In this document: positions 29,613-44,789 of the stretch, piece after piece | How the letters are laid out: each line of letters opens with the position of its first letter | Numbering within the stretch: position 1 is the first letter of the stretch | NCBI GenBank assembly: GCA_027340875.1 | Contig: DAIENX010000008.1 | Span: 32,001 to 96,000, forward strand | Direction of reading: 5' to 3' | DNA: 64,000 bases | Source: Elusimicrobiota bacterium | GTDB taxonomy: Bacteria; Elusimicrobiota; Elusimicrobia; Elusimicrobiales; UBA9959 | Position numbers and translations under genes: made by a program | The notes under the pieces: model-generated | What the model saw: only the letters and a program-made list of their open reading frames with translations | The model's database searches: none | Told to the model about the DNA's origin: nothing

Positions 29613-29745
29613 GCGCGCGTCGGAAACAGGATGCCGCCCCGTTATGGCCCGCACCGACGGGAGGGGATGCCAGGATTTGTGCCGTGGAACTTAAAATCGT
29701 AGAATATCTGCGTAGTACTACCCACTTTCCAGTTGCGAGGTGCTT

Positions 29746-38893: not shown

Positions 38894-38985
38894 GCGCCCG
38901 GGGTATCCCACCGAGCGCCCGTTGGGGAGGGGAACCGCGCAACGGTCCCCTGCAGTCCGGGCGAGCGGGGGAATACCCCGGGCGC
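38894..38985. repeat. Long palindromic intergenic hairpin
   Basis: 13-bp IR GCGCCCGGGGTAT/ATACCCCGGGCGC with nested CGCCCG/CGGGCG and AGGGGA/TCCCCT stems. Confidence 0.75.
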
Positions 38986-39005
38986 ACAGAGTATCAGGAG
39001 ACGCA

Positions 39006-41165
39006 ATGAAAAATATCGTCGTATTCGCATCCGGCGGCGGCACCAACCTGCAGGCCCTTATCGACGCGGCAGCCGGGAGCAGGCTGGACGGCAGGATAGT
39101 GCTGGTGATATCCAGCAGGAAGGACGCGGTGGCCCTCGAAAGGGCAAGGAAGGCCGGCATCCCCTGCGAGGCAGTTTCCCCCAAGGATTTCGCTGAGAAC
39201 AATTTCGACAGATATCTCGCCGACGCCTGCAGGGCGCACAAGGCCGAGCTGGTCTGCCTGGCCGGCTACATGCTGAAGCTGGGCCCGGAGATGCTGAAGG
39301 AATACAAAGGCCGCATACTGAACGTGCATCCGGCCCTGCTTCCCTCGTTCGGCGGCAAGGGCTACTACGGCATGAAGGTGCACGAGGCGGTGCTGGAGGC
39401 GGGCGCCAAGGTGAGCGGGCCCACCGTGCATTTCGTCGACGAGAATTACGACCGGGGGCCCATAGTCATGCAGCAGCCGGTGCCGGTGCTCCCCGGCGAT
39501 ACCCCCGAGACGCTGGCGGCCAGGGTTAACGCCGCCGAACTGGCCATCTACCCGAAAGCCGCGGCCCTTTTCTGCGCAGGCAGGCTGTCCATCAAGGACG
39601 GCCGCGTCGAGATAGCCGGGCCCGGGCCTGAAACGGGAAAGGTCCGCAGGGCGCTGCTGTCCGTCTCCGATAAGACCGGTCTTCTGGACTTCGCCCGCGG
39701 TCTGGTGAAAGAGGGCGTGGAGCTGGTGTCGACTTCCGGCACCTATAAGATGCTGAAGGACGGCGGCGTGCCTGTGCGGGCCCTGGAGACCATGACCGGC
39801 TTCCCGGAGATGCTGGACGGCCGCGTGAAGACGCTGCACCCCATGGTGCACGGCGGCATACTTTACCGGCGCGACAATCCGGAGCACTCGGATACCGTTT
39901 TCAGGTTCGGCATTGAGCCGCTGGACATGGTGGTGGTGAACCTCTACCCGTTCGCCGAGACGGCCAAGAAGGCCGCTCCGTGGTCAGACGAACTGATAGA
40001 GAACATCGACATAGGCGGCGTGGCCCTGCTGCGGGCCGCGGCCAAGAACTGGCAGTCCGTGGCCGTGCTGACCAGCCCGGCGGACTACGCGCCGGTGCTG
40101 GCCGCGCTGGCGGAGGGGAAAGGCGCGCTGCCCGAAACCCTGAAGAAGGAACTGTCGGTCAGGGCCTTCGCCCACACGGCGGCCTACGACGGGGAGATAA
40201 GCCGTGCGCTGACCCCGGCGGCCGGATTCCCTGACAGGCTGGAGATAAGGCTGAAGAAAATCCATGACCTGCGCTACGGCGAGAACCCGCACCAGGCCTG
40301 CGCGCTCTACACCCGCGGCGAGAGGCCGCCGTTCGCCCAGCTGCAGGGCAAGGAGCTGTCCTTCAACAATATCCTGGACGCCTACGGCACGTATCAGGCG
40401 GTGCAGGACTTCGAGAAGCCCGCCTGCGTCATCTTCAAGCACGTGACGCCCTGCGGCCTCGGCACCGGCTCTGACGTGGCCGAGGCCTTCGAACGCGCCT
40501 GGCGCACCGACCCGCTGTCGGCCTTCGGCGGCATCATAGCCGTCAACCGGAAGCTGGACGGCCGGATAGCCGACTTCCTGGCGAAGAAGTTCGTGGAGGT
40601 CATCTGCGCCCCGGATTACGACGAGAAAACGCTGGAGGTGTTCTCGAAGAAGGCCAACCTGCGCCTGCTTAAGTGGGACGCTTTCCCTAAGGGACACCGC
40701 GTGCTGCGCTCGGTGGGCGAGGAAGTGCTGGTCAGCGGCGACGACGACAGGCTGCTGGGCGATAAATGGGAGGTCCCTACGAAGCGCAAGCCCACGCCGC
40801 AGGAAGAGGAGGCGCTCCGCTTCGCCTGGGCGGCCGCCAAGTACGTGCGTTCCAACGCCATAGTCCTGGCCGATCCCTGCCAGACCGTCGGCATAGGAGC
40901 CGGGCAGATGTCGCGGGTGGACTCGGTCTTCATGGCCGGCCACAAGCTGGAGGCTTTTTTGAAGGACAACCCCAGGCCGGGGACGCTGGTGATGGCGTCG
41001 GACGCCTTCTTCCCGTTCCCCGACGCGCTAGAGGAGGGGGCGAGGCTCGGCGCCACCGCGGTAGTGCAGCCGGGCGGCTCGGTGAAGGACAAGGAAGTCA
41101 TAGAGGCGGCGGACCGCCTGGGCGTGGCGATGGTGCTGACCGGCATGCGCCATTTCCGGCACTAG
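39006..41165 (+). CDS. purH: Fused PurN (GAR transformylase)-PurH (IMP cyclohydrolase/AICAR transformylase)
   Basis: One 719-aa frame: ASGGGTNLQA, LAGYM, NVHPALLP (PurN), then ALLSVSDK, GRVKTLHP, IDIGG, RYGENPHQ, KH..PCG, SDAFFPF (PurH). Confidence 0.95.
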   Translation: MKNIVVFASGGGTNLQALIDAAAGSRLDGRIVLVISSRKDAVALERARKAGIPCEAVSPKDFAENNFDRYLADACRAHKAELVCLAGYMLKLGPEMLKEYKGRILNVHPALLPSFGGKGYYGMKVHEAVLEAGAKVSGPTVHFVDENYDRGPIVMQQPVPVLPGDTPETLAARVNAAELAIYPKAAALFCAGRLSIKDGRVEIAGPGPETGKVRRALLSVSDKTGLLDFARGLVKEGVELVSTSGTYKMLKDGGVPVRALETMTGFPEMLDGRVKTLHPMVHGGILYRRDNPEHSDTVFRFGIEPLDMVVVNLYPFAETAKKAAPWSDELIENIDIGGVALLRAAAKNWQSVAVLTSPADYAPVLAALAEGKGALPETLKKELSVRAFAHTAAYDGEISRALTPAAGFPDRLEIRLKKIHDLRYGENPHQACALYTRGERPPFAQLQGKELSFNNILDAYGTYQAVQDFEKPACVIFKHVTPCGLGTGSDVAEAFERAWRTDPLSAFGGIIAVNRKLDGRIADFLAKKFVEVICAPDYDEKTLEVFSKKANLRLLKWDAFPKGHRVLRSVGEEVLVSGDDDRLLGDKWEVPTKRKPTPQEEEALRFAWAAAKYVRSNAIVLADPCQTVGIGAGQMSRVDSVFMAGHKLEAFLKDNPRPGTLVMASDAFFPFPDALEEGARLGATAVVQPGGSVKDKEVIEAADRLGVAMVLTGMRHFRH

Positions 41166-41166
41166 G

Positions 41167-42261
41167 TCAGTCCATTACCGGGAAGTAGACGGTGAAGACG
41201 GCTCCTCCGCCCGGTTTGTTGTCGGCGAAGATATGGCCGTTGTTCTGGTGGATGATGCCGTAGACGGAGGAAAGGCCGAGCCCGGTCCCCTTGCCCTTCG
41301 GCTTGGTGGTGAAGAAAGGCTCGAATATCCGGGGGAGCACGTCCTTGGGGATGCCCGGGCCGGTGTCGGAGATCTCGAATACGGCGTATTTCTCTCCTAG
41401 GAGCGAGTGCGGCACTCCGTCCGGTCCTGCGGTAAAGGTCTTTATCTTGATGGCGCCGTTGTCGGACATGGCGTCCTTGGCGTTGACGGCGAGGTTCATG
41501 ATGGCCTGCTTGAAGTGTTCCGGTTCTATCTTGACCTTGGAGGGCACCGGGTCCAGGTCGTAGGCGAGGGTGACCCCCTTGCCCAGCAGGCCGGACAGCA
41601 GCGGCTTGATCTCGTCCACCGGCTCGTTGAGCGTGGTGACCACCGGCCTGCTCTCGTGCTTGCGGGCGAAGATCATCAGGTTCTTTATCAGCGCGGCGGA
41701 TTCCTTGGAGGAGCGCAGGATCTCGGACGAGAGCTTATGGCCGACCGAGCCCTCCTTCAGGTCCTCCATGATCAGCTCCATGGAACCGATGATGACGGTC
41801 AGCAGGTTGTTGAAGTCGTGGGAGATCTGGCCCGCCAGCAGGCCAAGGGATTCCATCTTCTGGCTCTGGTTAAGCTGGGACTCCAGCTGGATCTCGCGGG
41901 TGACGTCCCGGCGGGTGGAGAAGTAGTACTGGATCTTCCCGGAGGCGTCGGTGATGGGGCAGATGCGCTGCTCGTCGAGGTAGAGGCTCCCGTCCTTGCG
42001 GCGGTTGACGAGCCGGCCGCGCCAGGGCTTGCCGGAGCGGATCGTGGTCCAGAGGTCGCGGTAGAAGGCCTGGTTATGCTCCCCGCTCTTGAGCAGACTG
42101 GCCTTCTTGCCGACCGCCTCGGCGCTGGAATAGCCGGTAAGGACCTCGAAGGCCGGATTGACGTAGAGTATCGTGGCTGTAGGGTCCGTAAGGAAGAAGA
42201 CCTCGCAGGCCTGGTCCAGTGCCACGATAAGCGCTTCCTGCAGTTCCATGCCGGTCTTCAT
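41167..42261 (-). CDS. Cytoplasmic PAS-domain sensor histidine kinase (no receiver domain)
   Basis: YVNPAF..TGYS (PAS), HDFNNLL (H-box), NLAVNA, DTGPGI, FTTK, GTGLGL. Confidence 0.92.
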   Translation of the reverse strand: MKTGMELQEALIVALDQACEVFFLTDPTATILYVNPAFEVLTGYSSAEAVGKKASLLKSGEHNQAFYRDLWTTIRSGKPWRGRLVNRRKDGSLYLDEQRICPITDASGKIQYYFSTRRDVTREIQLESQLNQSQKMESLGLLAGQISHDFNNLLTVIIGSMELIMEDLKEGSVGHKLSSEILRSSKESAALIKNLMIFARKHESRPVVTTLNEPVDEIKPLLSGLLGKGVTLAYDLDPVPSKVKIEPEHFKQAIMNLAVNAKDAMSDNGAIKIKTFTAGPDGVPHSLLGEKYAVFEISDTGPGIPKDVLPRIFEPFFTTKPKGKGTGLGLSSVYGIIHQNNGHIFADNKPGGGAVFTVYFPVMD

Positions 42262-42288
42262 GGGGATATTGTAGCAAAACTTGGCGAA

Positions 42289-42361
42289 TTTACATGTCCG
42301 GAGCTTATGTGTTAGAATTAATCGCAAGACCCGCGTCTTGCACCGACGCGGGTATTCTTTT
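42289..42361 (+). promoter_or_regulatory. purB-purA promoter and leader with alternative antiterminator/terminator hairpins
   Basis: TG-n-TAGAAT 42310-18; GCAAGAC/GTCTTGC (42324-41) overlaps ACCCGCGTC/GACGCGGGT (42329-53) followed by ATTCTTTT. Confidence 0.55.
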
Positions 42362-42370
42362 GGAGGGCAT

Positions 42371-43771
42371 ATGCCGGAGCGCAACATAAACGCGGTAAGT
42401 CCCCTTGACGGCAGGTACGCCGCTAAGATGGGGGGGCTGACGCGGGTCACCGGCGAGGCCGCCCTGGCCCGCTGCCGGGCCCTGGTGGAATGCCGCTACC
42501 TGGCCAAGCTGTGCGCGACCCCCGGGGTGAAGGCCCGCCGGCTGACTGCGGCGGAGAACGCCCTCCTGGAGAAGCTGCCCCTCCTGTCGGATTCCGACGT
42601 CAGGAAGGTCGTAGCTATCGAGGAGACCGGCGCCGGCGGCATCCCGGCCACCAGGCACGACGTCAAGGCCGTGGAGTACCTGCTGAAGGACAAGCTCCGC
42701 CGCGCCGGCATGGGCGATCTGCTGGAGCTGGTGCATTTCGGCCTTACCTCGGAGGACGTCAATAATATCTCCTACGCGCTGATCCTGCGCGCCGGCGTGC
42801 GCGGCGAGCTGATACCGGCGCTGGATTCCATACTCGCTTCTCTGGACGAGCTGGCGCTTAAGTACGCCGACGCCCCTCTGTTGGCCCGCACCCACGGCCA
42901 GCCGGCCGTGCCGACGACCTTCGGCAAGGAGTTCCGCGTCTTCCACGCCCGCCTGGCCCGCCAGGTATCCCAGCTGGGTTCGGCGCGCATCGCGGCGAAG
43001 CTCAACGGCGCCTCCGGCAACTACAACGCGCACGTGGCCGCCTACCCCGTAGTGGACTGGCAGAAGTTCTCGCGGGAGTTCATAGAGAGTTTCAACTCCG
43101 GCCCCGGGCCGGACCTGGAGTTCAACCCGTTCACCACGCAGATAGAGCCGCACGACAGCTACGCCGAGCTTTTCGACGCCCTGCGCCGCGCGAACACGAT
43201 ACTGCTGGCCTTCTGCCAGGACATGTGGCGCTACATCTCCGCCGGTCTGGTGAAGCAGAAGGCCGTGGCCGGGGAGGTCGGCTCCTCCACTATGCCGCAG
43301 AAGGTGAACCCCATACACTTCGAGAACGCCGAGGGCAACCTCGGAGTGGCCAACGCGCTGCTGGGCTTCTTCTCCGCCAAGCTGCCGGTTTCCAGGCTGC
43401 AGCGGGACCTTTCCGACTCCACGGTGGAGCGTAATTTCGGCGCCGCGCTGGGGCACTGCGTCTCCGCGTACGGCTCCATACTGACCGGCCTGTCGCGCGT
43501 TTCGCCCGACCCTGCCGCCGCGGAGGCGGAGCTGGGGTCTCACCCCGAGGTGCTGGCCGAGGGCATTCAGACCATACTCCGCCGTGAGCGGGCCAGCGGT
43601 CCCTACGAGCTGCTCAGCAAGTGCACGCGGGGCCGCAGCGTGACCGCCGCGGAGATGAACGCTTTCATAGACGGCCTCGAGCTCAAGCCCGCGGTGAAGA
43701 CCGAGCTCAAGCGCCTTACGCCCCTTAACTATACGGGGCTTTCTGCCAAGCTAGCGAGGACCAGGAGGTAA
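42371..43771 (+). CDS. purB: Adenylosuccinate lyase
   Basis: SPLDGRY, HDVKAVEY, RTHGQPA, SSTMPQKVNP, SRLQRDLSD; GGAGG SD. Confidence 0.97.
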   Translation: MPERNINAVSPLDGRYAAKMGGLTRVTGEAALARCRALVECRYLAKLCATPGVKARRLTAAENALLEKLPLLSDSDVRKVVAIEETGAGGIPATRHDVKAVEYLLKDKLRRAGMGDLLELVHFGLTSEDVNNISYALILRAGVRGELIPALDSILASLDELALKYADAPLLARTHGQPAVPTTFGKEFRVFHARLARQVSQLGSARIAAKLNGASGNYNAHVAAYPVVDWQKFSREFIESFNSGPGPDLEFNPFTTQIEPHDSYAELFDALRRANTILLAFCQDMWRYISAGLVKQKAVAGEVGSSTMPQKVNPIHFENAEGNLGVANALLGFFSAKLPVSRLQRDLSDSTVERNFGAALGHCVSAYGSILTGLSRVSPDPAAAEAELGSHPEVLAEGIQTILRRERASGPYELLSKCTRGRSVTAAEMNAFIDGLELKPAVKTELKRLTPLNYTGLSAKLARTRR

Positions 43772-43772
43772 C

Positions 43773-44789
43773 ATGCCAGTAGATATAGTGGTGGGCGGCC
43801 AGGCCGGGGACGAGGGCAAGGGGAAGATCACGGCCTACCTGGCCGCGAAGAACGATTACGACTACTCCATACGCGTCGGCGGTCCCAACGCCGGCCATAC
43901 GATCTTTTACAACGACAGGATCTACACGCTGAAGACCACCCCTGGCGGCTTCGTCAACAGGAAGACGAAGCTGGTCCTCGGCGCCGGCACCTACATAATA
44001 CCTGAATGGCTGGAGAAGGAGATGAAGCTGACCGGCACGGCCGGCCGCTTCATCATAGACCCTCACGCCGTCATAATAGAGCCGCGCCATACGGAGGCGG
44101 AGCGCGGCGACCCTCGCATGATGGGCAAGATCGGCAGCGTCGGGACAGGCCTGGGCGCGGCGGTGCGCGACAGGGTGGACCGCAAGAAGCTGATGTTCGC
44201 CAAGGACCACCCGCGCCTGAAGAGATTCGTGAAGGACGTGCCGGAGCTGCTGAACAAGGCGCTGGCCAAGGGCTCCCGGATGCTGCTCGAGGGCACGCAG
44301 GGCATGAAGCTCTCCAACCTGCACGGCGAGTACCCCTTCGTGACCTCCCGCGACACCACGGCCTCCACCTTCATGGGCGAGGCCGGCCTCGGCCCCAAGT
44401 ACGCCGGGGACGTTTACGCCGTCTTCAAGCCGTACGTCACGCGCGTCGGCCCAGGTCTGGTGGCGAAGGAGATGAAGGACAAGAAGAAGCTCAATAAGTA
44501 CCATACCGCCGGCCGAGAGGTGGGCAGCGTCAGCGGGCGACTGCGCCGGGTGGGGGAATTCGAGATGAACGTCGCGCTTCAGACGGTGCGCATAAATTCC
44601 GCCACGAAGCTCGCTATAACCCACATAGACATGCTCGAAGGCGCGGACCTGAGCCGCGGCGTGAAAAGCTTCACCGGTGAGGCGCGGAAGTTCATGGCCA
44701 CGCTGGATAAGGTCTGCGCGGCCTACCCGTATCCCAAGGTCAGCCTGATCTCGTACGGCCCTGGCCTGCACGAGGTGCTGGAGCTGTAG
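43773..44789 (+). CDS. purA: Adenylosuccinate synthetase, short (archaeal-length) form
   Basis: GDEGKGK, GPNAGHT, EGTQG, YPFVTS, TRVG.G, GR.RR; 338 aa. Confidence 0.9.
   Translation: MPVDIVVGGQAGDEGKGKITAYLAAKNDYDYSIRVGGPNAGHTIFYNDRIYTLKTTPGGFVNRKTKLVLGAGTYIIPEWLEKEMKLTGTAGRFIIDPHAVIIEPRHTEAERGDPRMMGKIGSVGTGLGAAVRDRVDRKKLMFAKDHPRLKRFVKDVPELLNKALAKGSRMLLEGTQGMKLSNLHGEYPFVTSRDTTASTFMGEAGLGPKYAGDVYAVFKPYVTRVGPGLVAKEMKDKKKLNKYHTAGREVGSVSGRLRRVGEFEMNVALQTVRINSATKLAITHIDMLEGADLSRGVKSFTGEARKFMATLDKVCAAYPYPKVSLISYGPGLHEVLEL

Follow-up and report, generated by a model that had tools for sequence, protein, structure and literature searches.

In bacteria, nucleotide pools are known to control the choice of start site at pyrimidine genes, and two such systems stand closest to the locus described here. 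In the attenuator of Bacillus subtilis pyrG, CTP-sensitive reiterative transcription prevents formation of an intrinsic terminator by way of the 5′ end of the RNA (available portions of PMC7039003 and PMC4448216). In pyrC and pyrD of Escherichia coli and Salmonella, two 5′ nucleotides decide whether a hairpin forms, and the start follows an NTP ratio (available portion of PMC6524683). A eukaryotic parallel is yeast IMD2, and perhaps ADE12, where the choice between a G start and a downstream start decides termination at a gene of a purine branch point (available portions of PMC11323793 and PMC2525842). Bacterial purine genes are described as being under repressors and riboswitches (available portion of PMC13328217); purine riboswitches and PyrR-type attenuators likewise place terminator/antiterminator leaders before nucleotide genes.

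Here we analyze the leader of purB-purA in a 64,000-nucleotide stretch of an Elusimicrobiota genome (contig DAIENX010000008.1, positions 32,001 to 96,000), hereafter the window, whose own numbering we use throughout. Judging from its sequence and conservation, we are confident that this leader is a real two-state attenuator. We lean, if only modestly, toward its being set by a GTP/ATP-dependent choice of start, and the balance of the evidence tips slightly in favor of a bacterial sensor of the GTP:ATP balance, ∼40 bases long and free of protein and aptamer, in which a two-base shift of the start would toggle a terminator before the AMP branch. The first-pass annotation of this DNA, which proposed such a switch, knew of no description for purB/purA; neither did the literature we searched contain one, or any bacterial purine case, its scope leaving outside most subscription journals, supplements and the main attenuation reviews. 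The available portions of PMC12709180 and PMC13328217 contain no bacterial purine case. The two-state leader before purB-purA is apparently undescribed.

The purB-purA locus

The purB gene, encoding adenylosuccinate lyase, lies on the plus strand at 42371–43771, with its ATG at 42371 (NF006764, 572 bits against a cut-off of 446). It is followed on the same strand by a gene for a short archaeal-type adenylosuccinate synthetase, purA (43773–44789; best family NF003295, 340 bits, below the cut-off of 368), which begins 1 base past the end of purB. PurA makes AMP at the expense of GTP. Wherever a leader-bearing locus was checked for it, purA comes after purB. The pairing is of an archaeal-type purA (43773–44789) with a purB of the E. 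coli type.

The two genes are downstream of the pur operon and of a divergent gene for a PAS histidine kinase (41167–42276, minus strand). The kinase promoter is leaderless, with a −10 box at 42273–42268 and its ATG (42261) at position 7, positions being counted from the −10 box; it stands back to back with the purB promoter, an arrangement kept in many relatives. Further upstream, purN and purH domains share one open frame (38922–41165), so that PurN and PurH are apparently fused. Many relatives carry an ACGACGG/ACGTCGG box just upstream of the −35 element of the pur operon promoter (29650–29745; loci L206–L235), a possible site for some regulator in a genome where no PurR was found.

Two mutually exclusive folds

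All elements of the leader noted in the first-pass annotation are present where it placed them, on the plus strand. A −35-like hexamer, TTTACA (42289–42294), lies 18 bp ahead of an extended −10 element, TG-T-TAGAAT (42310–42318), which is kept in orthologues, and this promoter is the sole sigma-70-like site in 41500–43000 (1 found vs 0.4 expected). A spacer, or discriminator, of 5 nt (TAATC, 42319–42323) follows, and its length is always 5 nt in leader-bearing orthologues. The inferred alternative starts occupy 42324–42327: G at position 6, which would lead to read-through, C at the modal position 7, and A at positions 8 and 9, which would lead to termination. A 7-bp 5′-end helix, GCAAGAC/GTCTTGC (42324–42341), would act as antiterminator. 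The intrinsic terminator (42329–42361) comprises a 9-bp stem (42329–42353) and the tail ATTCTTTT (42354–42361), and the scan that found the promoter also calls a terminator here. The tail is imperfect in the window genome (6 T in 8), and most relatives have a cleaner T run. By sequence, an intrinsic terminator stands between the promoter and the first gene in both the window and the orthologues. The Shine-Dalgarno sequence, GGAGG (42362–42366), is kept in orthologues and lies outside both folds of the window leader.

In the window sequence the 5′ arm and loop of the terminator overlap the antiterminator helix, which bears out the claim that the two folds exclude one another, and the pair is conserved ahead of purB-purA. 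In the window and in orthologues the 5′ end of the leader pairs with a pyrimidine-rich segment on the terminator's 5′ side. For the 5′ helix, folding of the leader's first 22 nt gives −10.3 kcal/mol (z −4.9), a value reached by none of 200 shuffled sequences; for the terminator, the 38-nt leader gives −17.6 kcal/mol (z −4.8), reached by 1 of 200. A start at G42324 had been said to yield the full 7-bp helix and an A start a shorter one; the calculated helix energies are −10.3 kcal/mol from the G start and −3.3 from A8.

The leader is present in a single copy in the window genome. When 5465 −10-like sites across the whole genome were scanned for a −10 box with a nearby terminator and ribosome site, five candidates emerged, and inspection by eye found an overlapping 5′ helix in only one, the purB leader. 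A perfect 6-base complement of the hexamer beginning at position 6 accompanies 11 of the 288 extended −10 sites in the genome, 0/28 purE promoters and 0/25 guaA promoters of relatives; the corresponding figure for purB leaders, 26/31, is partly circular because that set was picked by motif.

Distribution among relatives

We gathered orthologues of purB from 61 relatives and 80 members of the family, together with further upstream regions, and called the leader by reading the DNA upstream. Of the genus's genomes, 30 extend far enough upstream of purB to be assessed (G027, G004 and G096, whose sequences end too early, were left out), and in 25 of these the leader precedes purB-purA; the hairpins, whose lack of conservation the first-pass annotation would have taken as contrary evidence, persist in most of the assessed genomes. 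The five genomes lacking it (G033, G093, G012, G002 and G019) show, by eye, no equivalent leader with another 5′ sequence. These genomes are kin, and the counts therefore reflect persistence, not independent origins.

The leader was found in 0 of 16 assessable loci of other genera of the family and in 0 of 4 of the order's other families, most of which are leaderless. Outside the genus it occurs in G097, of a sister genus, and in G264, of another order, the purB-purA cassette there being 61% and 78% identical to the window's. G264 has the same purB/short-purA cassette with its leader (purA at 413–1438 of locus L405), and the relatives of G264 that were searched do not have this purB type: a purB protein search of 80 of the 94 genomes of other orders within the class returned it from G264 only. 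The leader appears to travel between orders with the cassette, and its presence there is perhaps due to transfer or to binning.

Wider pattern searches gave little beyond these loci. Across the phylum there were 153 matches in 126 of 401 genomes, and of the 50 extracted and read only those in G264 and G036 were full leaders, the rest looking like chance or coding sequence. In the family of G264, 30 of 78 genomes matched, which is about the control level, and the −10 box was correctly placed in 0 of the 28 matches read outside G264. The metagenome search gave at least 119 loci; among the matches listed, six precede a visible purB start, one resembles the purB leader but runs into the end of its contig, and the others look like chance. 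A purB search of genome contigs returned 80 loci, mostly distant and proteobacterial, with too short an upstream region at L062. Two metagenome loci, L250 (501–620) and L247 (501–600), have a −10 box, a GCAAG helix at position 6 and a later terminator-like hairpin, whose 3′ arm in L250 also complements the 5′ end.

A conserved register at the 5′ end

We tabulated 31 leaders, from 27 genomes and four metagenome loci. In all 31 a G stands exactly six bases after the −10 box, and the antiterminator helix starts there. A pyrimidine stands on either side of this G, the downstream one leading into AAGA; these columns are circular where extraction demanded G[CT]AAGA. The spacer has A at position 2 in 30/31 leaders and a pyrimidine at position 5 in 31/31; position 7 is C in 30/31 and U in L009. 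Watson-Crick pairing is found in 31/31 leaders at positions 6–9, 30/31 at position 10 and 26/31 at position 11, and at position 5 in only 7/31 (23/31 counting G-U). The full pairing at position 6 and sharp drop at position 5 indicate that the helix starts at the G.

The inner helices and terminator stems vary in sequence, yet both folds are kept. In L035, L020 and L385, for instance, both folds are retained with different inner and terminator sequences; in L020 and L022 a downstream GCAAG competes directly with the 5′ GCAAG; and in long variants the antiterminator holds an additional CCC/GGG helix inside. The loops vary in length and sequence, and that of L009 holds a 40-nt insertion. Inside the leader of L009 (1362–1480) sits a palindromic insertion that leaves both folds intact, as do the palindromic insertions between terminator and ribosome site in L007 and L299. 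The check on covariation suggested by the first-pass annotation came out in part: both folds are kept and the outer helix shows one compensatory change (C-G to U-A at position 7, in L009), but in a 21-row alignment to which L009 does not belong, pairing is 98% and the outer helix has no covariation, so its invariance could instead reflect recognition by a protein.

Where transcription would start

Leaderless genes are frequent in the window genome, and most other genera have a leaderless purB. A count over 1677 crude gene starts of the window genome, where the background is ∼10, puts the leaderless ATG at position 7 in 63 cases, position 8 in 30, position 9 in 23, position 10 in 21 and position 6 in 2. 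At the 288 extended −10 sites, purines are enriched at position 7 and pyrimidines at position 6. Both patterns can be set beside the described preference of polymerase for starts at position 7 and at a purine following a pyrimidine (available portion of PMC5730371). The same portion of that source reports that purine-rich discriminators shift the start upstream and that NTP levels affect start choice; in a looser count, the window genome's leaderless genes showed no effect of the discriminator on start position.

The purB promoter departs from its neighbors in the purine pathway. In the same genomes the base at position 7 is instead G in 24/27 purE and 18/23 guaA promoters, and of the three only the purB promoter has a pyrimidine at position 7 with flanking purines that are each preceded by a pyrimidine. 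The G6-Y7-A8-A9 register is conserved, but position 6 is rare among leaderless genes (2 against 63 at position 7) and so looks disfavored as a start in the window genome. We expect A8 to be the default start and G6 a minority start, which would suit a switch that ample ATP keeps off. Use of G6 is the weakest link in this reading, for which the conserved pairing is the one line of evidence.

Start-dependent termination in simulations

The terminator stem is the more stable of the two, and the first-pass annotation cautioned that any switch would have to be kinetic. Calculated barriers for refolding from antiterminator to terminator average 11.7 kcal/mol for transcripts begun at G6, 7.2 at position 7, 5.2 at A8 and 4.5 at A9, and the barrier for G6 exceeds that for A8 in 28 of 28 distinct leaders, a set in which some terminator stems are shortened by the extraction rule and L405 is not included.

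We then simulated base pairing stochastically on a growing chain, as that annotation had suggested, at an assumed 50 nt/s with a 0.2 s dwell and on two time scales; pseudoknots, polymerase pausing and NusA are omitted from the model and its clock is assumed. For the window leader, simulated transcripts terminated in 0/60 and 0/37 runs from G6, 1/60 and 3/25 from C7, 15/60 and 54/56 from A8, and 53/60 and 60/60 from A9. In silico, then, G starts read through and A starts mostly terminate, which answers the kinetic caution within the model. A start at C42325, an option absent from the earlier proposal, behaves like the G start. Five of the seven orthologues simulated gave 0–14% termination from G6 and 100% from A8 (L003, 0/6 and 11/11; L020, 1/30 and 30/30; L004, 3/21 and 30/30; L031, 0/30 and 30/30; L034, 0/5 and 15/15). 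The switch is weak at A8 in the other two, with 0/30 and 1/9 for L035 and 0/4 and 0/2 for L405 in a first run, and, from G6, A8 and A9 respectively, 0/20, 7/20 and 7/20 for L035 and 0/11, 1/9 and 11/14 for L405 in a rerun. In the model, termination depends on the start position. A start-dependent termination switch is thus feasible by simulation, whose reach stops short of its occurrence in cells.

Proposed mechanism and alternatives

The leader sequences establish two conserved folds and a fixed G-Y-A-A register. Had transcription always begun at A, the G-C pairs would not have been kept; had it always begun at G and nothing else acted as input, the terminator would not have been. Both states must therefore occur, and start choice is the simplest input. 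With a pyrimidine at position 7, polymerase would pick either G6, beginning with GTP and then CTP, or A8/A9, beginning with ATP twice. Ample ATP would favor the A start and leave a 5′ helix of only 4–5 weak pairs; the terminator would form and an RNA of ∼35 nt would be released. Should ATP fall relative to GTP, a larger share of transcripts would start at G, and their two extra 5′ G-C pairs would allow the helix to form before the 3′ arm of the terminator leaves polymerase. Too slow to displace, this helix would let purB-purA be transcribed. We infer that the G start is used and that ATP:GTP is the signal, the latter because PurA consumes GTP in making AMP; the sign of control originally proposed fits the pathway in the same way.

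The main rival holds that transcription always starts at G42324 and that a trans-acting factor, whether an RNA-binding protein, a moonlighting purine enzyme, or a small RNA or ligand, opens the 5′ helix or favors the terminator. The six 5′ bases are indeed invariant where the other stems vary, and a related GGUCUUG stretch is kept in many guaA leaders. No gene for a B. subtilis-type PurR, a PyrR or a LacI-type domain scored over its cut-off, although in a genome 92% complete this does not prove that such a regulator is absent; moreover, the variable loops, with 40 nt inserted in L009, imply no conserved ligand pocket, and Rfam 15 gave no match at gathering score, only three at chance level (E 2–7, the best 2.1). 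A trans-acting factor would also leave unexplained why the purB promoter alone combines a G at the off-modal position 6 with a pyrimidine at position 7. We regard it as unlikely.

Start switching could be real and yet answer to a signal other than ATP:GTP, such as CTP (through the C7 start or the first G-C bond), GTP alone by way of the stringent response, or primers or caps at the A start. That position 7 is both the modal start and almost always C, that the C7 start reads through when simulated, and that CTP:GTP sets the pyrC and pyrD start (available portion of PMC6524683) all speak for CTP, against which L009 has U at this position. The synthesis of AMP from IMP with GTP suits ATP:GTP, and we consider another signal improbable. 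It is more doubtful still that the leader is an unregulated divider, in which a constant mix of starts and a constant leak through the terminator would merely set the level of expression: five genomes of the genus, like the other genera, do without the leader, mostly with a leaderless purB, but a weaker promoter would serve equally, and two exclusive folds kept through many changes are more than a fixed level needs. We can hardly entertain an accident of sequence, a repeat element or a −35 box of a divergent promoter that mimics the helix, a reading that conservation already largely refutes. By chance alone, GCAAG/CTTGC pairs often lie near −10-like hexamers in the phylum and in metagenomes, and palindromic repeats do occur in the pur gaps of this lineage. 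The full architecture, however, is found only ahead of purB, and the leader's single copy rejects a repeat. A divergent −35 box is rejected because the minus strand lacks a −10 correctly spaced from it; the divergent gene is served by a leaderless promoter of its own, 50 bases off.

For the GMP branch, a search for a mirror switch found no consistent start-dependent or opposite fold in guaA or purE leaders; guaB lies mostly behind guaA or other genes, and pyrG sits within an operon. In many guaA leaders (G000:C86:31700–31750; loci L176–L205) the stretch GGTCTTGAGGT is conserved over the ribosome site. The CAAGACC with which the purB leader opens near its 5′ end is complementary to the first seven bases of this stretch, a match that may be coincidence or a shared binding site.

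Comparison with known systems

If start choice by GTP and ATP does operate here, it would supply a purine case of a control established for bacterial pyrimidine genes, extending ‘repression without repressors’ to bacterial purines, with a nucleotide ratio read where the pathway branches at IMP, the genome having yielded neither PurR nor PyrR. The leader is small and could serve as a minimal ATP:GTP reporter. Covariance searches miss leaders of this kind because conservation lies in six bases at the 5′ end and in their spacing from the −10 box. From purine riboswitches and PyrR-type attenuators the purB leader differs in having no aptamer-sized conserved core, no Rfam match and no PyrR gene found.

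The yeast IMD2 system, so far as the available text describes it, uses Pol II with starts far apart and a protein-dependent Nrd1-Nab3-Sen1 terminator, with no RNA helix switch, and its sign is opposite: there the G start is the off state, and the product is GMP. The purB leader, if it works as proposed, would mirror it. The pyrG attenuator is alike in being protein-free, in pairing its 5′ end into the 5′ part of the terminator and in reading, as the purB leader would, an NTP at initiation. Its 5′ end, however, is lengthened by slippage on a GGG run; the window leader begins GCAAGA, with no such run, its extra pairs are templated and are gained or lost with the start position, and the pathway is that of purines, not pyrimidines. 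In pyrC and pyrD, according to the available text, the longer RNA masks the ribosome site, repressing translation in response to CTP:GTP, whereas in the purB leader the longer RNA would block a terminator and activate transcription, the inferred ratio being GTP:ATP. The purB leader would thus join pyrC-type start selection to pyrG-type antitermination: it would be a leader with a pyrC/pyrD-like input and a pyrG-like output, with neither the hidden ribosome site of the one nor the G run of the other.
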